A program made the position numbers and the translations under genes. Below, one piece after another: positions 3,707 through 38,790 of a DNA stretch of 64,000 nucleotides. Where the stretch lies: positions 102,325 through 166,324 of the forward strand of contig CAVPHV010000017.1 of NCBI GenBank assembly GCA_963704825.1. The letters are read 5' to 3'. Source of the DNA: an uncultured Acidimicrobiia bacterium (lineage in GTDB: Bacteria; Actinomycetota; Acidimicrobiia; Spongiisociales; UBA5794). Below the pieces are notes generated by a model, which saw only the letters and a list, made by a program, of their open reading frames with translations, searched no databases and was not told the DNA's origin. Positions within the stretch are counted from its first letter, which is position 1. Each line of letters starts with the position of its first letter.

Positions 3707-5005
3707 TCACGAAGAGTCGTCGCCGCCGGCCGCTGCGTTGCTTGCAGCTTCGGCGTCGGTCGGCGGAGGATCGCCGGCGTCGGCTTTCGCTAACGCCTCT
3801 GGATCGTCGTAGATCGACGTGTACACGACCGGTTGTACGGTCCGGTAGTGCGACAGGAAGGACGTGATCAGCGCCGCGACCGGCAGGGCCATGAAGGCGC
3901 CCATCGGCCCGGCAATTGCACCGCCGGCCAGGGCGGCTCCAAAGGCGACCCCGCCGTTGAGTGTCATGGTCTTGGCACTCAACCTGGGACTCAGCCAGTA
4001 GTTCTCGACCTGCTGATAGATCAGCACATAGGCCAGCACGATCAGCGCCTGAATGAAGCCCTGGAGGGCCAGGGTCATCAGCACCGGGACGGCGCCGCCG
4101 ATGTACGTGCCGATGGCGGGAATGAACTCGGAAACAAACCCGGCAAAGATCGCAAGTGGTATGGCAATCAACACCGGCAACCCGACGAGGACCATCGTGA
4201 AGAAGAAGCCGAGGCCGTTGATCCCCATCAGGATGATGCGGGAATAGAAGTAGCCACCGGTTTGCTCGATCGCCTGATCAAACGTCCACCCGAGCCGTTC
4301 CTGATGTTTCGGCGGGAACATCGAGAGAACCAATTGCTCGATCCGCTGATGGTCGGCGGTGAAGTAGAACGTGAACAGCGCGATGGTCATTGCGCTGAAG
4401 ATGAGACCGATCCCGGTAGCGAAAACCCCGACGATGCCACCGAGGGCTTGCTTGGCCCAATCCTCGGCGGCTCCGGCCGCATCTTCGCCTGCGGCGGCCG
4501 TCGATGAGGTGTCGCTGAGGCTGACGCCGAAGGTGTCCGCGAGCCAATCGTTGGCATTGTTGACCCACTCCGACCAGTTGTCGCCGATGGTCTGCGCGAC
4601 TTGGACGATCATCGGGATCAGGAAGACCACCATGACGATCATGAAGAGTGCGCCGGCGGCATAGACCACGCCGACGGCGGCCCCACGTTTCCAGCCGCGC
4701 TTACGGTGGATACGTTCGACGAGTGGAATCAGCGCCAGACTGAAGAAGATCGAGATGATCAGCATTCCGACGAGATCGCGAGCACGATCGAAAATGATGT
4801 AGCCGGAAACGGTGAGCAGGACCGCACCGATCACCCGCCAGATCGATCTGGTGCTGATCTCGTACACGATTGGCGGTGGCGCGGCCGGTGGACTCGATGG
4901 AGCGGCAGACACCGCTGCATCGTCGGATGGTGTCGTGCTGTGCGGATCGCTCATGTCACCTCGAGTGTTGACGTTGACTGCATTCTGGCTGAATGCTCGC
5001 CGCAT
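3707..5005 (-). CDS. AI-2E family transporter (PerM/UPF0118 family permease)
   Basis: Seven or eight TM helices with the characteristic C-terminal core (GLPVLIAIPLAIFAGFVSEFIPAIGTYIGG...QQVENYWLSPRLS). The N-terminal region is Pro/Ala-rich. Confidence 0.8.
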   Translation of the reverse strand: MRRAFSQNAVNVNTRGDMSDPHSTTPSDDAAVSAAPSSPPAAPPPIVYEISTRSIWRVIGAVLLTVSGYIIFDRARDLVGMLIISIFFSLALIPLVERIHRKRGWKRGAAVGVVYAAGALFMIVMVVFLIPMIVQVAQTIGDNWSEWVNNANDWLADTFGVSLSDTSSTAAAGEDAAGAAEDWAKQALGGIVGVFATGIGLIFSAMTIALFTFYFTADHQRIEQLVLSMFPPKHQERLGWTFDQAIEQTGGYFYSRIILMGINGLGFFFTMVLVGLPVLIAIPLAIFAGFVSEFIPAIGTYIGGAVPVLMTLALQGFIQALIVLAYVLIYQQVENYWLSPRLSAKTMTLNGGVAFGAALAGGAIAGPMGAFMALPVAALITSFLSHYRTVQPVVYTSIYDDPEALAKADAGDPPPTDAEAASNAAAGGDDSS

Positions 5006-6962: not shown

Positions 6963-7379
6963 CTACCGCTGAACGTCCACAGTCACCCTGCGGGGCAGGA
7001 CTTCTGGCTTCATCGGAACGACGATCTCGAGAATGCCATCGTTCGAACTGGCCGCGATGGACTCCTGGTCGGCGCCTTCGGGCAGGACGATGGTCCGCTT
7101 GAAGTCGCCTTCGAAGATCTCCTTGCGGCGATAGCCGTTGCCGGCCTCTTCGGTCTCGAAGCTGCGGGTGCCGGCAATGGTGAGGGTGCCTCCTTCGACG
7201 GTCACCTCGACGTTCTCGGGATCCACGCCGGGCAACTCGGCCCGGATGACGAGTGCGTCGCTCTTCTCGAAGACGTCGACCCGTGGCATCCACGGTCCTG
7301 TGGCAAACCCCTTGTCCTCGAACAAACGATCAAACTCGGTCATGAAGCCCCAGGGGTCAAAGCGCACCAGATTGGCCAT
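6963..7379 (-). CDS. hsp20: Hsp20/alpha-crystallin family small heat shock protein
   Basis: 138 aa with an alpha-crystallin domain (VDVFEKSDALVIRAELPGVDPENVEVTVEGGTLTIAG...GILEIVVPM). Confidence 0.9.
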   Translation of the reverse strand: MANLVRFDPWGFMTEFDRLFEDKGFATGPWMPRVDVFEKSDALVIRAELPGVDPENVEVTVEGGTLTIAGTRSFETEEAGNGYRRKEIFEGDFKRTIVLPEGADQESIAASSNDGILEIVVPMKPEVLPRRVTVDVQR

Positions 7380-7433
7380 GTTGTGGTCCTCCTTGTTGGA
7401 CAGTCAAGTTCTACTTATCATACAACATAATGA

Positions 7434-7458
7434 AATCTGAGTCTATTCCACTCAGATA
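7434..7458 (-). promoter_or_regulatory. HAIR-like inverted repeat (candidate HspR operator) in the hsp20 promoter region
   Basis: aTCTGAGT-ctattcc-ACTCAGAt has an 8-bp perfect inverted repeat with a 7-nt spacer. It matches the HAIR pattern CTTGAGT-N7-ACTCAAG. It lies ~55-80 nt upstream of the hsp20 start in a locally AT-rich stretch. Confidence 0.55.
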
Positions 7459-7500
7459 AGCAGAAGAGCGCAAGTGGCGAAAGGTCCGAGTGCGCACAGA

Positions 7501-7530
7501 GAGGGGGCCCCGTCGCTGACGGGGCCCCTC
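7501..7530. terminator. GC-rich hairpin, probable terminator of the upstream 798-aa gene that insulates the hsp20 promoter
   Basis: GAGGGGGCCCCGTC-gctg-ACGGGGCCCCTC is a perfect 12-14 bp stem directly after the stop at 7558. A T-rich tail is present only on the plus strand. Confidence 0.5.
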
Positions 7531-11023: not shown

Positions 11024-11776
11024 CTATGGGATGGTGGGGAGAAGTGCCCGAATCCGCTCGAGTACGCCGTCGAGAGTCACCACGGTGAAGCGGAAGGTTG
11101 GCGTCTCCGCCGGTTCGGTGGCCACCACCCAATAGCCGAGGTGTCCGGCGTCGAGCACTCGAAGTTCGGCGTCATGGTGAGAGTGGTCGATCTCGGTCCA
11201 CAGACTCGAAACACACCACGTGCGAAGCCGCGACCGATGGGCGAGCACCAGGCGCTTCGCCCAGTGGGCCTCGACGCCGGCGTCGGCGATGATTGCGGTG
11301 GCCGCGGCCGGATCGGTCATCCAGAGGTCCTCGGCGATCTCGATCGTTTCAACCGGGACGATGACCGAGCCATTGAAGCTGGGGTCGGGACGGGCGACGA
11401 TCTTGGTGAGCTGGGCGAGGTGGAACGGGAGGAGGACGGGTTCGATCGAGAAGAGTGCGAAGGCGTCATGGTCGCTCGGTTGGCCGAGGACGGCCTTTCC
11501 GTTGTGGTGCCAGATGGTTGCGATCTCGGTGTGCTCTTCCGTCACCTCGGTGGACACAACGGTGGTTGGTCCGGTCACGACCGAGAGCAGGTCGGCCGCC
11601 AGCGGGTGCAGGATGCCGCCACGGCTGATTCCGGCCCGCTCCAGCTCGGAGATCGCTCGAGTAATGGTCGGGTCTGCGTCGGTGGCGCCCCCGGTTCGCA
11701 GCAACATCGCCACCGGAACCAGGCGGCGGGGCAAGGTGAGGGCGCGTCGCCCGGCGTCGAGTATCGGCTGGGTCAC
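11024..11776 (-). CDS. Hypothetical cytoplasmic protein, third gene of the LysM/membrane-protein operon divergent from the esx-eccC operon
   Basis: ~250 aa, no TM helices. Probable GTG start at 11776 overlaps the upstream stop (GTGA coupling). EspG-like chaperone role considered but not supportable from sequence alone. Confidence 0.5.
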   Translation of the reverse strand: MTQPILDAGRRALTLPRRLVPVAMLLRTGGATDADPTITRAISELERAGISRGGILHPLAADLLSVVTGPTTVVSTEVTEEHTEIATIWHHNGKAVLGQPSDHDAFALFSIEPVLLPFHLAQLTKIVARPDPSFNGSVIVPVETIEIAEDLWMTDPAAATAIIADAGVEAHWAKRLVLAHRSRLRTWCVSSLWTEIDHSHHDAELRVLDAGHLGYWVVATEPAETPTFRFTVVTLDGVLERIRALLPTIP

Positions 11777-12708
11777 TGAGTGGCAGATCCGTGTGAGGCC
11801 GGAGGGCCGGGGAGGATGTCGGCCACTTCCCATTCGCCCCCGTTGCTGGAGAGCTCCAGTGTGTAGGCCACGACATGGACGATTCCGTTTGGCGTGGTTG
11901 CGTTGACGACGGTGCTCACGTAGGTCCGGCCATCGACAACACCTGTCGCCAGCTCAGACAGGGCAACCGCCTGATAGGGGAACGGCTCGATTGCCCGGAT
12001 GTCGCTGCCTGCGACGGTGTAACGCGACAGACGGTGCGACCCAACGAGCATGGCGTCGAGGAACTCTGCGGTGAACTCGGCCAGCTCGGCGTCGACCTCG
12101 TCTGCGAGGGGCGGGATAGGCGGCGGCGTCGGGGCGGGCGGCCCAGCAACTCGTGCCGGGATCTCGGTCACGATGAGCCGCCCATCGACCTTCATGACTC
12201 CGACTTGGTAGTGCTCGATCCCTGCCGAGACGTATCCGTTCTCGGTACGCTCCATGACCTCGGTGGCCACGGTCACATCCCAGTAGGCGCCGCCGAGCGT
12301 CCGGATCTCGATAGTGGCTGCTCGAGTCACATACCGATCGAGTGGTGACATCGCCGCCATCGTCGCCTGGGGTGCCATGAAGGTCTCAACGGACTGGCCG
12401 TTGGTCCCGCCTCCCGTCAGATAGGTCGCGATGAAGAGTTCGGCGAACCCGTCGACGCCGGAGGGCGGAGCAGGGGGTGCCGACACGGTGGCGCTCTGCG
12501 CTGCTCGGGATGCCCACAGCCCCGCCGCGGCGGCGAGCAGAGCGCCGATGGCGAGCGCGACGATGAGACCCCTGGTAGGTCTGCCCGCACGGTGTCTTGG
12601 GTACGGCGGGGCCGGTTCGATTTCCGCTTCGGTTGAGGGCTGAGTCTCCGCCCCGAAATAGTCCTCGATGTCGGTGACGGGTCTCCCAAAATCGAAGTGC
12701 GTGGTCAT
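11773..12708 (-). CDS. Single-pass membrane protein with a ~35-aa cytoplasmic N-terminus, one TM helix and a ~250-aa extracytoplasmic domain
   Basis: ATG at 12708 with GAGGA SD. It overlaps the LysM gene stop (ATGA). TM segment GLIVALAIGALLAAAAGLWA followed by a Pro-rich stretch and a globular domain. Confidence 0.6.
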   Translation of the reverse strand: MTTHFDFGRPVTDIEDYFGAETQPSTEAEIEPAPPYPRHRAGRPTRGLIVALAIGALLAAAAGLWASRAAQSATVSAPPAPPSGVDGFAELFIATYLTGGGTNGQSVETFMAPQATMAAMSPLDRYVTRAATIEIRTLGGAYWDVTVATEVMERTENGYVSAGIEHYQVGVMKVDGRLIVTEIPARVAGPPAPTPPPIPPLADEVDAELAEFTAEFLDAMLVGSHRLSRYTVAGSDIRAIEPFPYQAVALSELATGVVDGRTYVSTVVNATTPNGIVHVVAYTLELSSNGGEWEVADILPGPPASHGSATQ

Positions 12709-13487
12709 GGCTGTTCCTCGGCAACGGCGGGCAACACAACGATCTCGCCGGGATAGATGAGGTCGGGGTCGCTCGAGCGGATGACGTCTTGGTTGGCGAC
12801 GACAACGCGGTGCCAGTACTCGCCGACATCGGGCAGTTGGGCCCCCGAGGCCGCGAAGGTACCGAGGTGTTGTTCGGCAATAGTCCACAGGTTGTCGCCG
12901 GGGGCCACGGTCCACTGCGCCGGCTCGGTGATCACCATGGAGGTGGGCGCCGCAGTTGCCGGGCTGGGCACTCCTGCTGGGGTGGGGGTCCATCCGACTC
13001 GGGTGGCTCCCTGTGGCAAGGTCTCGGCCGGCTCGGGGTCTTCGCTGCCGACAAACGGCGGAATGGGGAGGCCGTCCTCGCCGATTCCTACGACGATCGG
13101 AGAGGGTCCGTCGGTGGCGATGGCGGACATGGCCGGTCCGGCGACGGTCGCGGCGACGATGGTCAGTGCCGCCGTGCCGTCAACGACCCTGCGCACCGCC
13201 GGGAGCGTTGCCCACTCGATCGCCCGTGCCGCGCCCGGAATCCTGGCCAACCGGGCCAGGGCGTAGAGCGCCGTTGAGATCGCAAGCCAGTAGGCAAGAG
13301 CCAGCGCGACGATCCGGAGTAGTGCCGGCAGCGACTCGTCGGCGGGAGTCTGCTGGAGCCAGTTTCCCAGCTGACGCCATGGAATCTGGAGCCACTCAAC
13401 CTCTCCGATGGCGTGTAGGGCCACGAGCGCGCCGGCCTCGAAGACGATCAGCGTGGCCGCCCGGACCCCTCTCGATTCTCGTTCCAT
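12705..13487 (-). CDS. Membrane-anchored LysM domain (peptidoglycan-binding) protein
   Basis: 2-3 N-terminal TM helices, a Pro-rich linker and a C-terminal LysM (WTVAPGDNLWTIAEQHLG...IYPGEIVVLP). Start ATG at 13487 (MERESRG); an upstream alternative TTG start exists at 13523. Confidence 0.65.
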   Translation of the reverse strand: MERESRGVRAATLIVFEAGALVALHAIGEVEWLQIPWRQLGNWLQQTPADESLPALLRIVALALAYWLAISTALYALARLARIPGAARAIEWATLPAVRRVVDGTAALTIVAATVAGPAMSAIATDGPSPIVVGIGEDGLPIPPFVGSEDPEPAETLPQGATRVGWTPTPAGVPSPATAAPTSMVITEPAQWTVAPGDNLWTIAEQHLGTFAASGAQLPDVGEYWHRVVVANQDVIRSSDPDLIYPGEIVVLPAVAEEQP

Positions 13488-13489
13488 TG

Positions 13490-13580
13490 AGTCATCATAT
13501 GCATTGCTAAATGTGTTTGTCAATAGTCAACAATCGTTATACTATATTGACAATTGTTAAATACCTTACATAATCTTCAA
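13490..13580. promoter_or_regulatory. AT-rich (~30% GC) divergent promoter island between the LysM operon and the WXG100-EccC operon
   Basis: Plus-strand promoter: -35 TTGACA at 13547-13552, 17-nt spacer, -10 CATAAT/ATAATC at ~13569-13575. Minus-strand promoter: -35 TTGACA (complement of 13516-13521), 17-nt spacer, -10 ATATGA (13493-13498) for a near-leaderless LysM gene. Near-palindromes TTGTCAATAGTCAACAA and TTGACAATTGTTAA overlap the -35 boxes. Confidence 0.55.
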
Positions 13581-13643
13581 CTATGACCAAGTCGACCGGC
13601 CCTGCGGTCGGTCGACTCGAGCAAGGAAGGAAGGACCAGCACA

Positions 13644-13916
13644 ATGGCGAATATGTTTGGGGCGGATCTGTCGGATCTCGCGGCCCTGCGGGGGACGTTT
13701 GAGACAAAGGCGGGCGAGGTCCAGGCGCTGACCGGAGAACTGTCGGCAAAGGTGGACCCGGCCGCAACGGCGTGGCAGGGGCCGGGCGCCGACAACTTCC
13801 GGGCGGCATGGAACGGCGACTTCAAGCCGGCACTCACCAAGCTCGAGACGGCCCTCGAGGAAGCCGCAGTTGCCGTCGGCAAGTACCGCGAGAACATCGA
13901 GGCGGCTACCCGGTAA
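13644..13916 (+). CDS. WXG100 family type VII secretion target (EsxA/EsxB-like), 90 aa
   Basis: Helical hairpin with central WQGPGADNF (WxG) motif. Size ~90 aa. SD GGAAGGAAGGA upstream. Confidence 0.85.
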   Translation: MANMFGADLSDLAALRGTFETKAGEVQALTGELSAKVDPAATAWQGPGADNFRAAWNGDFKPALTKLETALEEAAVAVGKYRENIEAATR

Positions 13917-13946
13917 CCCTGAGTCTCGAGATCGGGAGGGGAAACC

Positions 13947-14309
13947 GTGACCCCGCACCAGCTCCGGCAATTGGCCGACCGCAATCGGGCGGAGGCGGAC
14001 GCACTGACGGCGTCCGCCGCCCGACTGCGGACGACTGCCGAGTCGTTCCGCGATCTGCTGGAGGGGATTCCCGACCAATCCCGCCGGGTCTGGCAGGGAC
14101 CGGCCGCGACCGACTTCGAGGACAAGGCGCAGGCCGCAGACCGTGATCTCCGCCAACAGGCTCAGGTTCTGTTGAGCACCGCGAGCGACTTCGATCGGGA
14201 GGCGGCAGATCTCAGGGCAGCGGCCCGCGGGCTCGAGGTGCGAGCTGCTGCTGAGGAGGCGGCGACCGTTCCGGGTGAATCGGGTCCGCCTCCAACCGGC
14301 GTGTGGTGA
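13947..14309 (+). CDS. WXG100 family protein, 120 aa, second Esx-like gene
   Basis: Central WQGPAATDFE (WxG) motif. Paired with the upstream WXG100 gene and immediately followed by eccC. Confidence 0.8.
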   Translation: MTPHQLRQLADRNRAEADALTASAARLRTTAESFRDLLEGIPDQSRRVWQGPAATDFEDKAQAADRDLRQQAQVLLSTASDFDREAADLRAAARGLEVRAAAEEAATVPGESGPPPTGVW

Positions 14310-17300
14310 GTGATGCAGATCGTTGTGCACCGCGCCGGAGCCGAGTTCGAGGTGGTACTCGCCGTCGGCGACGAATCGGCCTCACTCGGCGAGATCGTGG
14401 CCGGGTGGTTCGAGGATGCCCCGGCGGCATTTGTCATCGACGGTGTGGTGCGATCGGGAGATACTCCCCTCGCAGCAAGTGGTCTGAGATCTGGATCAGT
14501 GCTCATTCCGCTGGCAGCAGCAGGCCCTATCCCCGAACTGACGGAGGGTGGGCTGGGCGCGGTCGGGCGGCCGTCCTCCTCCTCTCGCATTCCCTTCAAC
14601 CGCCCGCCGCGGCCAGAGTATCCGGTGTCGCTGCCGGCCATCGAGGTGCCGGCCGCACCGCCGGTGGCCAAAGCCTCGACCCGTTTTGGCTGGGGAGCGC
14701 TGGTCGTTCCGCTGATACTCGGACTGGTCATGGCGGTGTTCTTTCACCCCCGGATGGCGCTGTTCGCTCTCTTCAGCCCGGCCATGATGCTGGCCAACTG
14801 GATGGAAGACCGCAGGCGCAGCCGGCGCGAGCGCAGGAGCAGCCAAGCCGACCTCGATCGCAGTCTCGCCGGATTCGGGGACCGGCTCGACGACCTCGCC
14901 ACCGCCGCCGCCCGACTCAAACGCCGCGAGGTGCCGCATCCCGATGGGCTGATTGCATCTCTTGTCGCCGGGAGTCTGCGGATGTGGGAGCGTCGGGTCC
15001 ATCACCCCGACGCCATGGTGCTCGGAATTGGCAGCGGCGACGTCGCGTGGAGCCCGGCCCTGATCACCCCACCTGGGGGCGCCGCGGAGGAGGCGCTGGC
15101 ATTGCTGGCGACGCGCCGCGAGTTGCGCGGGGTTCCGGTCGAAGTCGAGTTGCGGCCCGGTGAGGTGACGGGACTGGTCGGCGATCGCCGCCGCGCCCTT
15201 GGCATGGCACGCTCGCTCCTGATTCAGGCTGCGATCCTCCACGGTCCGGCTGATCTCGAGCTCACGGTGGTCACCGACGCTCCGGATGTGTGGGATTGGA
15301 TCAAGTGGCTGCCTCACGCCGACCTCGACCCGGTGGCTGGGCTGCGCCGGCTCGGAGCCGACCGTGAGGACGTCGGCCCGGTCGTTACCGCCCTGTTGGA
15401 GTCGATTGAGCGGGATCCCGGAGGCAGCGGGCCGATGCGATTGCTCGTCGCCGATGTTGTGGATGTTGCCGCCGAAAGGTGGCAGCGGGTGCGAGAGGGG
15501 CTGAGCGCCGCGGCTCGGGGCAAGGCCGCCGCCATCGCGATTGCCCGCTCGATGAGCGAGTTGCCGTCGGTGTGTACTTCGATTGTTGCGGTTGGTGCCG
15601 GCGGGCCAGCACAGCTGCGGGCTCCCGCAGAGAATCGAAACGTCGGCGGGATTGCGCCGTGGGTCGTTGCTGCGGCGACGGCGCGCCGTGCGGCACGGGC
15701 GCTCGCCGGGTTTCGGGATCCCGATGTTGTCGCCGGTGCAGCAGAGCTTCCCCACCAGGTTCGTCTGCCTGATCTTCTTGGAATCTCCGATCCAACGCCG
15801 GACGCCATCCTGCGCCGCTGGCAGGCCGCAGGCGCCGCCCCGCGCCCGGCGGCCCCCATCGGCATGACCGCCGACGGTCCGCTTCTTGTCGACTTTGTGT
15901 CGGATGGACCCCACGCTCTGTTGGCCGGGACCACCGGCGCCGGTAAGTCCGAGCTGCTGCGCACGTTGGTCGCCTCCCTGGCGGCAACGAACGACCCCGA
16001 CCACCTCACCTTCGTGCTGATCGACTACAAGGGAGGGAGCGCCTTCGACGTCTGCGCCGACCTGCCCCACACCGTTGGTCTGGTAACGGATCTCGATGGG
16101 CACCTGGCGTCGCGGGCGCTCACCTGCCTGGAAGCCGAACTGCGCTACCGCGAGCAGCGTTTGCGCGCTGCGGGGGCATCTGATCTTGCCGCGTACTTGG
16201 CGGGTGGCGAGCCGGAGCCGCTGCCCCGGCTGCTGGTTGTCATCGACGAGTTCGCTGCCCTGGCCAAGGAACTGCCGGCGTTCATGGCGTCCCTCGTCGA
16301 CATCGCCCAGCGCGGCCGCAGCCTTGGGGTGCACCTCTTGCTCGCCACCCAACGGCCCGGGGGTGTGATCAGCGACAGCATCCGCGCCAACACCAACCTG
16401 CGGATGGCGCTGCGAGTCCAGGATGGGTCCGACTCGACCGACGTCCTGGGCATCCCGGACGCGGCAACGATTGGTCGGATGCAGCCGGGCCGTGGCCTGG
16501 TGCGGCGCGGACCCGGTGATGTGGTGCCGTTCCAGACGGCGCTGGTCACTACACCAAGGGGCGATGGCGCGGCAACCGCAGCTGCGGTGCGGCCGTTTGT
16601 CTTCGGCTACGAGCAGCCTGCGGCGGCAGGCACCGACCGCACCGAAACCGGTCCGACCGACCTGGGGGCGCTGGTCGACGCGGTGACTGGGGCGACCGCC
16701 ACCCTCGGGCTCGAGCCACCGCGTCGACCGTGGCCGGACCCGCTCGAAACCAACGTGGCCGCCAAGCTTCTCGACGCGACCCCGCCCGATCAGGTGCGCG
16801 GCGCGCGGATCGCGGTGCCGCTCGGGCTCGCCGACGAGCCCACCCACCAGCGGCAGCGGACCGCGTGGTGGTCAAGTGAGGATGGCAATCTGCTCCTGTA
16901 CGGCGTGCCTGGTTCGGGAACGACGACTGCTCTGGCGACCATCGCGCTTGGGGTGGCGGGACGCCACTCGCCGGACGATGTGCACGTGTACGTCATGGAC
17001 TTCGACGACCAGCGCTTGGCCCCATTGGCCGGTCTCCCCCACGTCGGGGCGGTGGTCGGGGCAGGGGAGCGAGAGCGTCAGCTGCGCCTCCTGCGGTTTC
17101 TCCAGGCCGAGGTGGAGGAGCGCCGGGTGGCGGTGGCGGCCGATCCGGCAGTCCTCGGGGAATTGCCCGCCCTGCTGGTGCTGGTGGACAATTACGCCGG
17201 TCTGGCGGCGGCCTTCGACGAGCCGGCCGACATGGCGGTGCGGACCATTCTCCCCCGGGTCGCGGCTGATGGCCCCGGCGTCGCCATCCATGTCGTGGCC

Positions 17301-18221
17301 ACGGCAAAACAGCCCATCGACATACCCGCCCAGCTGGGTTCTCTGGTCCCCGCCAAGCTGGCCTTTCGCCTCACCGATCGCTACGAGTACGGCGGGCTCG
17401 GCATCCCCATCGAAGAGGTGCCAAGGATCCCGGGACGCGCTCACCAATCGGGGACGGGGCAGGAGATCCAGATCGCTCGAGCCCATCCCGGTGGTGTCGC
17501 CGCGGCCGTAGACGCGCATGCCGACCAGGCAGTGGCGCGGCCACCGCATCGCATCGAGGTACTCCCCACCGAAGTCAAGGTGCCCGACATCGTCGATGCG
17601 GCGCGCGTCTTCGACCTCGAGTGGTCCCTGCCGATCGGGATCGGAGATCACGACCTCAGCCCGGTGGGGTTCGTGCTCGGCGAGGGAGATCACGTTGTGG
17701 TCGCCGGGCCGCCACGGTCGGGCAAGTCGACGGCGCTGATGACCATGGCTGCGATCGTGGCGAGCCACCGGCCCGACGTGATCATCACCGCGGTGGCTCT
17801 GCGGCGCTCTCCATTGCGAGACTGCCCGCAGGTGACGCGGCTCGTCACGGATCCTGAGCAGCTCGAGGATGCCCTTGGTTCGGTGCCCAACGGCGATGGG
17901 TCGCCCCATCTCGTGCTGGTCGATGACGCCGGGATGGTCGACGACGAGGGCGGCTGGCTATCCGCAATGGTCGCTTGCCGTCGGCCCGGGGTGCATCTGG
18001 TGGCGGCCGACCAGGCGGACACGCTGCGGGCCGCCTACGGGCATTGGACCAAGGATGTGCGACGTTCCCGTCTCGGACTCGCCCTCAAGCCGAACGCAGG
18101 CTCCGACGGGGATCTATGGCTAACGCCACTGCCGCGTCGAGGTCCGCCTCACTTCCCTCCCGGGCGGGGCTACCTGTTGGCGGATGGCCGCTGTGAGCTG
18201 GTGCAGACGGCATGGCAGTGA
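14310..18221 (+). CDS. eccC: EccC-like type VII secretion FtsK/SpoIIIE family ATPase with three P-loop NTPase domains
   Basis: 1303 aa. N-terminal soluble domain then two TM helices (~aa 125-165). Three Walker A sites: LLAGTTGAGKSE, LLLYGVPGSGTTT (degenerate) and VVVAGPPRSGKST. Start directly abuts the second WXG100 gene. Confidence 0.9.
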   Translation: MMQIVVHRAGAEFEVVLAVGDESASLGEIVAGWFEDAPAAFVIDGVVRSGDTPLAASGLRSGSVLIPLAAAGPIPELTEGGLGAVGRPSSSSRIPFNRPPRPEYPVSLPAIEVPAAPPVAKASTRFGWGALVVPLILGLVMAVFFHPRMALFALFSPAMMLANWMEDRRRSRRERRSSQADLDRSLAGFGDRLDDLATAAARLKRREVPHPDGLIASLVAGSLRMWERRVHHPDAMVLGIGSGDVAWSPALITPPGGAAEEALALLATRRELRGVPVEVELRPGEVTGLVGDRRRALGMARSLLIQAAILHGPADLELTVVTDAPDVWDWIKWLPHADLDPVAGLRRLGADREDVGPVVTALLESIERDPGGSGPMRLLVADVVDVAAERWQRVREGLSAAARGKAAAIAIARSMSELPSVCTSIVAVGAGGPAQLRAPAENRNVGGIAPWVVAAATARRAARALAGFRDPDVVAGAAELPHQVRLPDLLGISDPTPDAILRRWQAAGAAPRPAAPIGMTADGPLLVDFVSDGPHALLAGTTGAGKSELLRTLVASLAATNDPDHLTFVLIDYKGGSAFDVCADLPHTVGLVTDLDGHLASRALTCLEAELRYREQRLRAAGASDLAAYLAGGEPEPLPRLLVVIDEFAALAKELPAFMASLVDIAQRGRSLGVHLLLATQRPGGVISDSIRANTNLRMALRVQDGSDSTDVLGIPDAATIGRMQPGRGLVRRGPGDVVPFQTALVTTPRGDGAATAAAVRPFVFGYEQPAAAGTDRTETGPTDLGALVDAVTGATATLGLEPPRRPWPDPLETNVAAKLLDATPPDQVRGARIAVPLGLADEPTHQRQRTAWWSSEDGNLLLYGVPGSGTTTALATIALGVAGRHSPDDVHVYVMDFDDQRLAPLAGLPHVGAVVGAGERERQLRLLRFLQAEVEERRVAVAADPAVLGELPALLVLVDNYAGLAAAFDEPADMAVRTILPRVAADGPGVAIHVVATAKQPIDIPAQLGSLVPAKLAFRLTDRYEYGGLGIPIEEVPRIPGRAHQSGTGQEIQIARAHPGGVAAAVDAHADQAVARPPHRIEVLPTEVKVPDIVDAARVFDLEWSLPIGIGDHDLSPVGFVLGEGDHVVVAGPPRSGKSTALMTMAAIVASHRPDVIITAVALRRSPLRDCPQVTRLVTDPEQLEDALGSVPNGDGSPHLVLVDDAGMVDDEGGWLSAMVACRRPGVHLVAADQADTLRAAYGHWTKDVRRSRLGLALKPNAGSDGDLWLTPLPRRGPPHFPPGRGYLLADGRCELVQTAWQ

Positions 18222-19753
18222 GCGGCTTTCGCGGGATTGATCCCGACGGGCTCGTTGGGTTGAGCCGGATGATGGAGGGCACTGCGGCTGAGGTGCTCGC
18301 CGCAGGCAACCTGGGCTACGCGGTGCTCGTCCGCCGCGACCGGGAGTCCGCCGGCGACCGCTTCGGGATGGCGATGAGTCGCCTCGCCCGGCAACTCGAC
18401 GACGAGGCGGCGGAAATGAGCTGGCGGGCTGAGGCAATTCGACGGGGTCAGCTGATGACCTCCTCGTCGATGCCCTCGATGGTGGTTGCCGAACTCCTCT
18501 GGGAAGAGGCTGAGTTCGCCGCGGCCGCCAGGTTCACCGTCGGCGACCGTCAGGTGAGCTTCGAACAGTGGCGCCAACGCCCGCCGGTCCGCGCCCTGAG
18601 GAAGATGCGGCCGGACCAGGTGTCGGCGGCCTTGGCGGCCATGTCTCTCGCGGCAGTCGATCGCCTCCTGCTCGAAGAGCCAACCCTGGTGGGGGGGTTG
18701 GACGGAGCCCCCGCTTGGCTGCGGTGTACCGCAAACGACATGCTGATCGGGCGGGAGGTGAATCGGCTCGCCGGACTTGCCGCCGAGATCGCGGATGAGA
18801 TCAACCAGTTGGAGGATCTCGAGTGGTCGGGCCGCACCACGCAGCAGCGTCTGGTGCGCGAGGTGTACCTCGACGAACTCGAGCGGATCGAGGCGCGCAT
18901 CGCCATGTTCGGTCGGTGGTTGGCCGAGGATCGCCAGATCCTGCTGTTCGACCCTCGAGGTGACGGCCGAGTCGCTGAGGTGTTCGGAGACCTCGACCAA
19001 GCTGGTTTTGTCGCCGTGGTGGTGCCGGGGATCACCAACGACATCGACAACTTCGGTCCGATCGACGGTGGGGGGTTTCGAGCCAACGCCGGACAGCTCT
19101 ACGAGGAGGCGGCGAGGCTCGAGCCCGACGTGGCCACAATCGCCTGGCTGGGCTACGACACGCCCGATGGCGCCGATGCGGCGCTAGCCGGTGCCGCTGA
19201 GGACGGTCACCGCCACCTCGTTGCCTTCACCAAGGGTCTTGCCGCAGCGACTCCCGAACCGCACCTCACCGTCATCGGTCACAGCTACGGTTCGCTGGTC
19301 ACCGGGATGGCGGCGGGTGCCGGCATGGCGGTTGACGATGTTGTGTTCGTCGGAAGCCCCGGAACCAGCCTCGACCGGGCAAGCGAGGCGATCATCGACA
19401 GGGGGGGACGGGTGTGGGCGGGCTTGGCGCACAAGGACCCGATCGGGGCGGGCATCGATCCCCTTCCCGACTCGGCATGGGAGTTCATGCTCGGCCCAAT
19501 CGGCTCGTACGTATGGGACAGCTTTGGGACCGGTGACTACGCGACGGAGGACCTGTGGCATGGCCGCAACCCCGTTCACGAGTCGTTCGACGCCATCGAG
19601 TTCACTACCGATGGCGCCGCGGGTCATTCGCAGTACTTCGCCGCCGGCACCGAATCGTTGGCCAACCTGGCGCGCATCATCGCCGGTCTCGACTTCGCCG
19701 TCCGCTTGGTCGGTGGCGGCGAACTAGCAGCCGACTCAGTCGAAGACGATTGA
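18212..19753 (+). CDS. DUF1023-type alpha/beta hydrolase with N-terminal helical domain; candidate T7SS-associated substrate/effector
   Basis: 513 aa. GHSYGS nucleophile elbow and downstream Asp/His-containing segments in the C-terminal half. N-terminal ~250 aa helical. Start overlaps the eccC stop by 10 nt. Confidence 0.7.
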   Translation: MAVSGFRGIDPDGLVGLSRMMEGTAAEVLAAGNLGYAVLVRRDRESAGDRFGMAMSRLARQLDDEAAEMSWRAEAIRRGQLMTSSSMPSMVVAELLWEEAEFAAAARFTVGDRQVSFEQWRQRPPVRALRKMRPDQVSAALAAMSLAAVDRLLLEEPTLVGGLDGAPAWLRCTANDMLIGREVNRLAGLAAEIADEINQLEDLEWSGRTTQQRLVREVYLDELERIEARIAMFGRWLAEDRQILLFDPRGDGRVAEVFGDLDQAGFVAVVVPGITNDIDNFGPIDGGGFRANAGQLYEEAARLEPDVATIAWLGYDTPDGADAALAGAAEDGHRHLVAFTKGLAAATPEPHLTVIGHSYGSLVTGMAAGAGMAVDDVVFVGSPGTSLDRASEAIIDRGGRVWAGLAHKDPIGAGIDPLPDSAWEFMLGPIGSYVWDSFGTGDYATEDLWHGRNPVHESFDAIEFTTDGAAGHSQYFAAGTESLANLARIIAGLDFAVRLVGGGELAADSVEDD

Positions 19754-20401
19754 TTCGAGCATGGCTTCTCCCTCGGCAATCCGTTGCACGTTCAGATCGC
19801 CCTCATAGAGGAACGCGGCATATAGGGTGCCCGTTGCTGCCTCGATCAGGACAAAGCGGCTGACCGAAACCGTGCCGTCGTCATGGGAGATGGTGCGCTC
19901 CACGATATGGGCCGGAGCGCCGTCGATCGTCGCTTCCTCAGCCACGGTGACCTCGCTGGTGCCGGGGGTGGGGAAGAAGAACTCAGCGAAGAGGTCGGCA
20001 TTGGCGTCGGCGATCTCGGCTGGAGTTCCTGCGTCGGCGAAGTCGAGGTCTTCGGAGGCGAAGCCGATGAAGAGGACGCCGCCGGGCCCCTCCTCGGTGT
20101 CGATCAAGGCGGCAACACGCCCGTAGGTGATGCCGTCCTGGCGCACCACCCAGTCGCGTGGCACCGTGATCGAGATCCCGAGCGGCTCCACGGCAACCGG
20201 GTCGAGCGGGGCAGGCGCCGCGGCGCTCGACGTTGTCGGCGCCGCCGATGTCGTCGCACTGGGCGAGGCAGTGGTCGAAGTCGTCGTTGCTGTGGTTGTT
20301 GTGGTGGTGGCCGTGTCGGTTGCGGAGCACGCCGTCGCGGCGAGGACGACGACGGCGAGGGCTGCTGGCAACAACGTCCTACGGATGGGCATGGCCGCCA
20401 T
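19736..20401 (-). CDS. Secreted/lipo-protein with Thr-rich linker
   Basis: Signal peptide with LAATAC lipobox-like motif, poly-Thr linker and a globular C-terminal domain. It overlaps the yibE/F-like gene start, so the two are probably co-transcribed. Confidence 0.6.
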   Translation of the reverse strand: MAAMPIRRTLLPAALAVVVLAATACSATDTATTTTTTATTTSTTASPSATTSAAPTTSSAAAPAPLDPVAVEPLGISITVPRDWVVRQDGITYGRVAALIDTEEGPGGVLFIGFASEDLDFADAGTPAEIADANADLFAEFFFPTPGTSEVTVAEEATIDGAPAHIVERTISHDDGTVSVSRFVLIEAATGTLYAAFLYEGDLNVQRIAEGEAMLESIVFD

Positions 20402-34415: not shown

Positions 34416-35832
34416 ATGTCCACCAGTCAGAGTTCGCACCCAAGAACGCCTCAGCTCCAGAAGGCCGTCAGTCCGCAGGATCGCCGCGCCAAGGGGAAGG
34501 CGATTCGCAAGGCGGTGCCACGTTCCAGCCACGGCGAATGGTCGGCGCCGGCCGACCGCCAAGACCCCGTCGCTGTGATCGCGAGTCAGGATACGGAGCG
34601 AGTGCAGTGGCTGGTCCCTATTCGACACGGTCGGATGTCGGATTCGCCCTTCACGTTCTACCGCGGCGCCGCCAAGATCATGGCGGCCGACCTATCTCAC
34701 ACCCCGAGGACCGGTCTAAACGCTCAGATATGCGGTGATGCTCACCTGGCCAACTTCGGCTCCTACGGTTCGCCCGATCGTCGTCAGGTGTTCGACGTCA
34801 ACGACTTCGACGAAACCCTTCCCGGCCCCTGGGAGTGGGATCTGAAGCGGTTGGCGACCAGCGTCGTGTTGGCAGGACGCGACAATGAATTGGACGACTC
34901 CGCCATCAGGACGGCGACGCTGGGATCGGTTGCGGCGTACCGCCGGGCAATGGCGGAATTCGGGAGCGCGAGGACACTTGACATCTGGTACTCACAGCTC
35001 TCGCTCGAGCAGATGGCGGCGGCGGCGCCCACCAAACACGACCAGAAACTGGTGGAGAAGAGGGCAAGGAAGGCTCGTTCCAAGGACAGCCTGACGGCCT
35101 TGTCGAAGCTCGCGGAGAAAGTGAACGGGACCTATCGGATCAAGAGCCAGCCGCCGTTGCTGTTGCCGATCGCGCGAACTGGCCGGTTCGAGAGATCTGG
35201 ACGAGATCAGGGCTGGGGTTGACGACAGCTTGTCGAGCTACCGGTTGACCCTCCCCGACGATCGTAGGCTCCTGTTCGACCGGTTCACCCTCGTCGATTT
35301 TGCGCTGAAGGTGGTGGGTGTCGGCAGTGTGGGAACTCGCTGCTTGATCGTGCTCTTTCAAGGGCGCGACGACGAAGACCCGCTTTTCTTGCAGATCAAG
35401 GAAGCCAGCAGCTCGGTGTTGGAAGGTCACCTGCCGCGGAGCCACTACGAAGAGCACGGCAAGCGGGTGGTGGAAGGGCAGCGACTCATGCAGGCGTCGA
35501 GCGACATCTTCCTGGGCTGGACGGTCCACCTCGACTCCAACTGGCACTTCTACTGGCGCCAGCTCCGCGATATGAAGGGCTCGGCCGACGTTGCGGCGAT
35601 GGGCCCGGCACGGTTGGCGGACTACGCGAGCTTGTGCGGATGGACGCTGGCTCACGCCCATGCCCGATCGGGGGATCCCATCGCGATAGCGGGATACCTC
35701 GGCTCGGCGGACGTCTTCGATCGTTCCGTTGCCGACTTCGCGTTTGCCTATGCCGATCAGAACGACAAGGACTATCAGGCGTTCGTGTCCGCCATCAAGT
35801 CGGGCAAGATCGAAGCCGTCACCGGCGAGTAG
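34416..35832 (+). pseudogene. DUF2252 family protein split by a +1 frameshift near 35180-35230 (two ORFs 34416-35222 and 35230-35832)
   Basis: Both ORFs together look like N- and C-terminal halves of a single ~470-aa DUF2252 protein. A frame change sits next to a G-run (GGCTGGGGTT). May be an assembly indel rather than true decay. Confidence 0.55.
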
Positions 35833-38399: not shown

Positions 38400-38790
38400 G
38401 AAGCGCATTTGGCGGGTTCTCCGCAATCGTGTCGTCCCCTTCACCCCACGTCGAAACGCGGTGAGACCGTGGAGGAGCACACTCATCCCTACCGTGATGG
38501 CGGCGACCGCGGTGATCGTGGCTTGGCCGGCGAGATCGGCCTCCGTGACTACGAGAGCTGCTAAAACGATTGTCACCAGTCCTCGGGGACCGAACCACCC
38601 CATGTAGAGCACGGTCGGCCCGGCCGGCTTGGTCCCACCATGGACACGGCAACCGGGCCGATTCGAGCCACCGTGAGGGCGAGCACGGCCATAGGGACGA
38701 TCTGCCATGTCATCAGATCGAAGGTGCGATTCAGCACGAGCGCGAAGCCGAGCACGCAGATGGCAACGTGGAAGATGACACGTGCCATGC
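38400..38790 (-). pseudogene. Remnant of the C-terminal end of a CPA1-type Na+/H+ antiporter (frameshifted fragment)
   Basis: Two adjacent minus-strand frames encode antiporter-like TM segments (IVPMAVLALTVARIGPVAVSMVG and VLYMGWFGPRGLVTIVLAALVV...LLHGLTA). There is no intact N-terminal ~350 aa. Confidence 0.5.

Follow-up and report, generated by a model that had tools for sequence, protein, structure and literature searches.

What does a short, strongly AT-rich island do between two divergent operons of a type VII secretion system (T7SS)-like locus? The question arises in 64,000 nt of DNA from an uncultured Acidimicrobiia bacterium (the window, to whose positions all coordinates refer), in which a 156-nt intergenic region separates a plus-strand operon beginning with a WXG100 gene from a minus-strand operon beginning with the gene for a LysM-like membrane protein. 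It is argued here, with a probability that we put at roughly 0.55, that transcription of both operons of this compact locus is controlled from the island and that a conserved 18-nt block within it is the operator of a putative sequence-specific regulator. The GC content is 33.6% across positions 13488-13600 and falls to 28% in the stretch 13485-13584, the lowest of any 100 nt in the 64 kb and approximately 7.7 standard deviations (sd) below the window mean of 65.1% (sd 4.8); the second-lowest island has 40% GC. An initial annotation had described an island of about 100 nt and about 30% GC between two T7SS-associated operons, a description that was borne out together with the flanking genes, although the background that it had placed at 68% GC measures 65%.

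Two predicted promoters in back-to-back arrangement

A promoter scan located two divergent sigma-70-type promoters within the island, P_esx on the plus strand facing the WXG100 gene and P_lysM on the minus strand facing the LysM-like gene (Table 1). Both score 11/12 against the sigma-70 consensus, and they are the only sites on either strand of the 64 kb with at least 10/12 overall and at least 5/6 in the -35 hexamer. The pattern TTGACA-N16-18-TAnnnT is likewise matched by P_esx and P_lysM only. As two sites at 11/12 or better were observed where shuffled sequences gave a mean of 0.04, the pair lies far beyond chance. Each combines a -35 hexamer near TTGACA with a -10 hexamer near TATAAT or TAnnnT at a distance of 16-18 nt, as is typical of the sigma-70/SigA type. 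A third promoter-like site on the plus strand at 13517 (TTGTCA, 17-nt spacer, TACTAT; 9/12) falls between the two -35 boxes, where the sequence is not conserved, and is probably a chance match. Regarding the elements named in the initial annotation, the plus-strand -35 at 13547-13552 was exact, while its CATAAT (13569-13574) lies 16 nt downstream and not 17. On the minus strand the -35 hexamer itself was correct and its position (13523-13518, given as 13516-13521) was off by 2; the proposed -10, ATATGA, is present at 13500-13495 with a 17-nt spacer, but the better register is TATGAT at 13499-13494, with an 18-nt spacer and a score of 11/12.

Orthologous loci (denoted by L numbers) were collected through contigs encoding an identical WXG100 protein, a metagenome scan and contigs of WXG100 homologues with identity down to ~67%. 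The resulting set comprised 23 distinct intergenic sequences, representing 18 lineages at <85% identity. The divergent gene arrangement is the same throughout this set (23/23), and so are both -35 hexamers, which read TTGACA without exception, while the -10 keeps TAnnnT; at the same position, the P_esx -10 of the relatives is CATACT, TAGGGT, TATGGT or TACGGT. The back-to-back sigma-70-type promoters proposed at the outset are therefore upheld by conservation of their hexamers in all orthologous regions, and it is very probable that P_esx and P_lysM are functional promoters.

The distance between the two -35 boxes takes only two values: in 15 lineages they stand 23 nt apart, and in the other 3 the gap is 13 nt. 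The difference equals one helical turn, suggesting that the two promoters are held to particular faces of the helix relative to each other. The DNA in between has a pairwise identity of only 0.38; its sequence is free and its length constrained. The segment showing this two-valued distance was noted in the window (13524-13546) and in L024, L027 and L030. Furthermore, the lysM start codon follows the -10 by 7-9 nt in at least 14 of the 18 lineages, without a Shine-Dalgarno sequence, and the start called in L001, L002 and L005 is the same as in the window. Because the ATG at 13487 lies only 7 nt past the -10, a leaderless lysM mRNA is predicted, which agrees well with the earlier prediction.

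A conserved block in the spacer of P_esx

The spacer of P_esx behaves very differently from that of its sister promoter. Across the lineages, the 16-nt P_esx spacer has a pairwise identity of 0.70, with 9 of its 16 columns conserved at 80% or more, compared with 0.38 and a single column of 18 in the P_lysM spacer and with the same 0.38 in the DNA between the -35 boxes. The family consensus is TTGACA-ATCGTTAAATATCGTy-TAnnnT, from which the 18-nt block is taken. Conservation here extends beyond promoter function and ancestry: since P_lysM carries the same hexamers around an unconstrained spacer, neither low divergence, nor shared ancestry, nor general promoter needs can explain the block.

A position weight matrix (PWM) constructed from the relatives only, with the window left out, returned 13551-13568 and 13521-13538 as the top two matches in the 64 kb. 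With a refined PWM of 13 lineages these sites scored 24.5 and 15.8 bits, respectively, the shuffle maximum being 15.5. As the PWM favours A and T, the second copy was also compared with shuffles of the local AT-rich DNA, which gave p ~0.004-0.005, a result that holds with TGTCAA fixed. Of particular value is L029, in which the block has gone from the esx spacer while the promoter hexamers are kept. The sole PWM match of this locus (19.7 bits, local p ~0.0003) sits exactly where the window has its second copy, with the CAA of TGTCAA as its first letters. Two lineage groups carry a significant second-position copy, and their primary sites rank with the weakest of all, being degenerate in the window and L001 and absent in L029. 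Such relocation of the site looks like binding-site turnover.

Several observations weigh against an operator. In the window genes scanned over 3.7-38 kb, Pfam revealed no gene for a DNA-binding regulator, nor do the Pfam annotations listed for the L028 locus include one. PWM scans of the 64-kb window and of the remaining DNA of the fetched loci, among them the 20-kb L028 locus, gave no further copy of the block. The block partly abuts the -10, so that RNA polymerase itself could read that part. Moreover, its symmetry is ambiguous, a direct repeat ATCGTT-N4-ATCGTy with a period of 10 (4.2/6) and a 14-mer palindrome (4.4/7) fitting about equally; the main site of the window is degenerate, with ATTGTT...ACCTTA in place of ATCGTT...ATCGTT; and the lineages are related, so that the counts do not represent independent events.

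The first three of these points are also what would be expected if the block were an intrinsic promoter element, read by RNA polymerase, sigma or an RNA polymerase-associated factor and tuning P_esx without a separate regulator, as would be the location of the block exactly between -35 and -10. Such an element is nevertheless unlikely. P_lysM carries the same hexamers and does without such a spacer sequence, significant copies occur outside any spacer, beside the other -35, in the window and L029, and L029 retains its promoter hexamers with no block between them. The relocation in L029 fits a unit bound by a trans-acting protein better than a spacer element read by the polymerase, and an operator of a putative sequence-specific regulator is favoured here, if only somewhat beyond even odds.

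Further searches with the motif complete the description of the block. Matches to ATCGTT-N4-ATCGT with 2 mismatches are not enriched in the window (19 against 12.7 expected), and viral contigs scanned for the exact motif yielded 0 matches. All matches to TTGACAATYGTTAA in the window are located within the island, bar one with 3 mismatches at 38563. This sole outside match, GTGACAATCGTTTT (38563-38576, minus strand), is found where a small open reading frame (ORF) predicted on the minus strand (38573-38788) has its 3' end, and is probably due to chance, as the full 18-nt PWM gives no score there.

Near-palindromes, base composition and resemblance to known operators

The initial annotation had described two near-palindromes at the -35 elements, TTGACAATTGTTAA at 13547-13560 and TTGTCAATAGTCAACAA at 13517-13533, as expected for a single regulator of both operons. 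On this reading they would be operators of one dimeric regulator that controls both operons symmetrically. Both are indeed present in the window, with 6/7 complementary pairs in the former and, as read from the sequence, 5/8 in the latter, and a half-palindrome TGAC-N4-GTTA occupies the same place in 18 of the 23 regions. The symmetry itself is not conserved, however. The core ACAATTGT is confined to the window and L001; the family consensus at this point is the non-palindromic ACAATCGT, and ACAAACGT also occurs in other lineages. At 6/7 the window has the highest 14-mer symmetry of all lineages, owing to a lineage-specific C-to-T change, whereas the mean is 4.4/7, of which three pairs belong to the fixed -35. 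Only TTGTCAA is conserved in TTGTCAATAGTCAACAA, and a further 10 nt of conservation past the first palindrome (AAATATCGT) is left unexplained. Palindromic operators of this kind are therefore improbable; a regulator site overlapping the promoters survives from that proposal, and the palindromes as conserved units do not.

The base composition of the island could have a meaning of its own, in that an Lsr2- or H-NS-like nucleoid protein might recognise it by its AT content and silence both operons. Lsr2 is described as an actinobacteria-specific nucleoid protein (PMC4255298), and a sharp AT-rich island at a promoter in a GC-rich genome resembles the targets of such silencing. The contrast of 28% with 65% GC is extreme, and most lineages keep the segment between the -35 boxes AT-rich (GC 0.17-0.46 in all but L025, at 0.57) without any conservation of sequence. 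UP-element-like DNA would account just as well for the AT content of this non-conserved 23-nt segment, at about -36 to -58 of both promoters. The island is very short, however, at only ~100 nt. It also contains conserved, sequence-specific blocks, and the hexamers and the 18-nt block themselves account for much of its AT-richness, which is partly a by-product of AT-rich functional motifs. Across the lineages, core GC ranges from 26 to 53% (0.26-0.53); the top value is that of L025, where hexamers and block are still present. That AT-richness fades in some lineages, in which it is evidently dispensable, while the motifs persist favours specific elements over general Lsr2-like binding. In addition, the lineages share synteny at this locus, which does not appear foreign or recently gained. 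Among the window proteins scanned against Pfam, which cover part of the ORFs in this 64-kb portion of the genome, none is annotated as Lsr2. Lsr2-like binding, which the initial annotation had associated with such islands, is not supported by these data and appears quite improbable as an explanation, although it is compatible with specific control from the block and does not exclude it.

The Streptomyces BldD box is a pseudo-palindrome, 5'-TNAC(N)5GTNA-3', and a flexible linker between the DNA-binding domain and the C-terminal domain is reported to let BldD adjust to multiple pseudo-palindromic boxes (PMC4151990). It is very improbable that the block is a variant BldD-type operator (Xre family, dependent on cyclic di-GMP) that would place the T7SS under developmental or second-messenger control, even though its fixed TGAC-N4-GTTA resembles the half-sites TNAC and GTNA and overlaps a promoter as expected of a repressor site, and even though a convincing bldD orthologue is reported in Acidimicrobium (PMC4255298), because the spacing is N4, the N5 form being limited to 1 of the 23 regions, where its position is unrelated, because TGAC is merely part of the -35, and because conservation extends well past the 12-mer, with AAATATCGT unexplained.

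Gene content of the locus

The features of the locus are collected in Table 1. On each side of the island the genes abut or overlap, so that each side looks like an operon; the stop and start codons of the minus-strand genes overlap, and 4-nt gene overlaps are found in L001. As in other T7SS loci, WXG100 genes stand beside a multi-domain FtsK/SpoIIIE ATPase. This ATPase matches the NCBIfam models EssC and EccC at E = 1e-148 and 1e-119, with scores below the equivalog cut-offs. Pfam found neither EccB nor EccD nor mycosin in the predicted genes scanned over 3.7-38 kb, or in the annotations listed for the 20-kb L028 locus, and the cluster is accordingly regarded as non-canonical. It extends over 11024-20401 in the window and 7237-16638 in L028 and includes a weakly Rv3446c-like protein of 221 amino acids (aa).

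Table 1. Coordinates of the intergenic elements and neighbouring genes in the window. Relatives are the orthologous regions; UTR, untranslated region.
Feature	Position	Strand	Remarks
Intergenic region, 156 nt (putative control region)	13488-13643		core is the AT-rich island 13485-13584
ATG of LysM-like gene	13485-13487	-	begins 7 nt past -10; predicted transcription start; no Shine-Dalgarno sequence
P_lysM -10, TATGAT	13494-13499	-	18-nt spacer; TAnnnT at same distance in relatives
P_lysM -35, TTGACA	13518-13523	-	promoter scan, 11/12; invariant in 23/23 regions
Second, weaker block copy, CAATAGTCAACAATCGTT	13521-13538	+	30 nt upstream of main block, same strand; overlaps P_lysM -35
DNA between -35 boxes	13524-13546		23 nt, AT-rich; UP-element position (~-36 to -58) of both promoters
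P_esx -35, TTGACA	13547-13552	+	promoter scan; invariant in 23/23 regions
Operator-like block	13551-13568	+	within P_esx spacer; window reads CAATTGTTAAATACCTTA; family consensus CAATCGTTAAATATCGTy
P_esx -10, CATAAT	13569-13574	+	16-nt spacer; predicted transcription start ~13580-13583
GC-rich hairpin	13590-13617	+	12-bp stem, 4-nt loop; in predicted ~62-nt WXG100 5' UTR; significance uncertain
Shine-Dalgarno region, AAGGAAGGAAGGA	13623-13635	+	upstream of WXG100 ATG at 13644; AAGGAAGGA or GGAGAGGAG in relatives
EspG-like gene	11024-~11776	-	Pfam EspG 6e-4
TcpC-like gene	11773-12708	-	Pfam TpcC 1e-7
LysM-like membrane protein, 260 aa	12705-13487	-	first gene of minus-strand operon; Pfam LysM E = 0.002 (below cut-off), NCBIfam LysM 1.2e-6
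WXG100	13644-13916	+	Pfam WXG100 1.7e-9 and NCBIfam WXG100_ESAT6, both above cut-off
WXG100-like	13947-14309	+	
EccC/EssC-type ATPase, 1303 aa	14310-18221	+	Pfam FtsK_SpoIIIE 6e-57, three stretches
Abhydrolase_8 protein (alpha/beta-hydrolase)	18212-19753	+	Pfam 1.5e-38
Plus-strand operon, whole	13644-19753	+	WXG100, WXG100-like, EccC/EssC-type ATPase, Abhydrolase_8

The arrangement of the cluster is kept across many Acidimicrobiia metagenome contigs. The closest genome record for the LysM-like protein is a metagenome-assembled genome (MAG) of an uncultured Acidimicrobiaceae, at 81% identity, and remoter matches derive from MAGs of Acidimicrobiia and Actinomycetota. The distant LysM-like loci L007-L019 were considered as comparators and set aside as uninformative, as they lie in other contexts without an adjacent WXG100 gene. 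One of them, L008 (~3850-3930), encodes a distant Acidimicrobiia homologue of the LysM-like protein (32% identity) and has an island of 40% GC immediately upstream, with neither an adjacent WXG100 gene nor the block.

To our knowledge, T7SS regulation is known almost solely from mycobacteria and a few Firmicutes. Control of esxBA by BldD has reportedly been described in S. coelicolor; a literature search on esxBA and BldD gave nothing. Among the papers searched, none combines type VII secretion and Acidimicrobiia.

The 5' UTR of the WXG100 mRNA

The predicted leader of the WXG100 mRNA contains a GC-rich hairpin with a minimum free energy of -24.8 kcal/mol and a z score of -2.76 in the window. 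In the relatives z ranges from -1.5 to +0.3, not above shuffles, and with a covariation term of +0.84 and 1 compensatory pair there is no support from covariation, so that a conserved RNA element is unproven. A search of 13300-13800 against Rfam gave no family at threshold, the only hit being Rothia-sucC at 19.3 bits against 64.5 (E = 0.31). In M. smegmatis, the double stem-loop in the esxB 5' UTR did not stabilise a reporter transcript (PMC11728522), and for this reason the hairpin of the window should not be assumed to be functional. An upstream ORF starting from the ATG at 13583 was rejected, as ACCAAG/ACAAG indels among close relatives break its frame. Where the esx mRNA is predicted to begin, the short sequence (A/G)TGAC(C)AAG occurs in the window (13582-13592) and in L002, L004, L005 and L022, that is, in the close group only; indels interrupt every reading frame there, so that it does not represent a conserved upstream ORF.

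Comparison with mycobacterial systems

SigA-type promoters and leaderless mRNAs have been mapped in mycobacteria. The promoters described here share with them the -10 form TAnnnT and, in the case of lysM, a start codon that coincides with the point where transcription is predicted to begin. They differ in that both -35 boxes are perfect TTGACA, unique within the window, and in that the transcription starts are predictions. Perfect TTGACA -35 boxes are unusual among actinobacterial promoters. Like the plus-strand side, the M. smegmatis esxB-esxA locus (PMC11728522) has two esx-type genes paired behind a proximal promoter of their own, and a stem-loop in the 5' UTR.

As a T7SS-associated control region, the closest parallel is the stretch between whiB6 and espM in Mycobacterium marinum and M. 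tuberculosis, to which EspM and WhiB6 bind (PMC7002343). Both are short intergenic regions by a T7SS locus, with two divergent promoters and one or more regulator sites, in the window candidate ones, that could serve both sides. In the mycobacterial case, however, the flanking genes encode two regulators, whereas structural or substrate genes flank the region in the window (WXG100-EccC on one side, LysM/TcpC/EspG-like on the other). Moreover, the regulator is encoded on site there, while none was found nearby in the window; the motif is unrelated; and binding in the window is deduced from sequence.

Other observations in the window

The second-lowest-GC island (7366-7465) contains an inverted repeat, CTGAGT-N7-ACTCAG, at 7440-7456, upstream of a minus-strand hsp20 gene at 6963-7379, and a GC-rich stem-loop follows at ~7500-7530. 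The repeat resembles the actinobacterial HspR operator HAIR, CTTGAGT-N7-ACTCAAG. Elsewhere, the adjacent same-strand ORFs 34416-35222 and 35230-35832 match the N-terminal (profile 1-191) and C-terminal (202-392) halves of DUF2252, respectively. This pair could stem from a single gene that has been split or frameshifted, or from a mistake in the assembly.

Proposed mechanism and implications

The elements described above may be combined as follows. Two promoters of the housekeeping sigma (sigma-70/SigA) type would drive transcription in opposite directions out of a common AT-rich core of constrained phase. P_esx would produce a leadered mRNA (~62 nt) with a strong ribosome-binding site, translated in a Shine-Dalgarno-dependent manner into the secreted WXG100 pair, the EccC motor and the hydrolase. 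P_lysM would produce a leaderless mRNA, from the A of the ATG, for the envelope-associated LysM-like, TcpC-like and EspG-like partners. An AT-rich segment at about -36 to -58 can act as an UP element, as general promoter knowledge suggests, and both polymerases probably use the 23 or 13 nt between the -35 boxes as UP-element-like or bendable DNA.

We infer a protein that binds the block in the P_esx spacer and would thereby exclude RNA polymerase from this promoter; the same protein may also bind the second copy over the -35 of P_lysM, three helical turns upstream. Perfect TTGACA boxes in both promoters suggest a high intrinsic strength, such that control would most likely be exerted by repression, and with a copy of the block over the P_lysM -35 one protein could shut both operons together. 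Repression common to both operons is offered tentatively, at clearly less than even odds. A further reading, which falls a little short of even odds, is that the block is the operator of a putative dedicated regulator of a non-canonical T7SS, equipped with LysM-, TcpC- and EspG-like partners, lacking EccB, EccD and mycosin and widespread in uncultured Acidimicrobiia, and that the 13/23-nt phasing reflects a single nucleoprotein complex switching both operons.

The arrangement is conceptually that of an ordinary divergent promoter and operator and would not surprise a specialist. Back-to-back divergent promoters with shared operators form a general class, reportedly described by Beck and Warren in 1988. 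The value of the region lies in the precise, testable elements that it offers in an abundant uncultured class of actinobacteria, namely two promoters, a leaderless start and an 18-nt candidate operator. The near-consensus promoters could serve as expression parts in high-GC hosts, and the candidate operator could be used as bait for finding the regulator. If the proposal is true, the block motif would provide, by DNA-affinity capture, the first experimental handle on T7SS regulation outside Mycobacteria, Streptomyces and Firmicutes.

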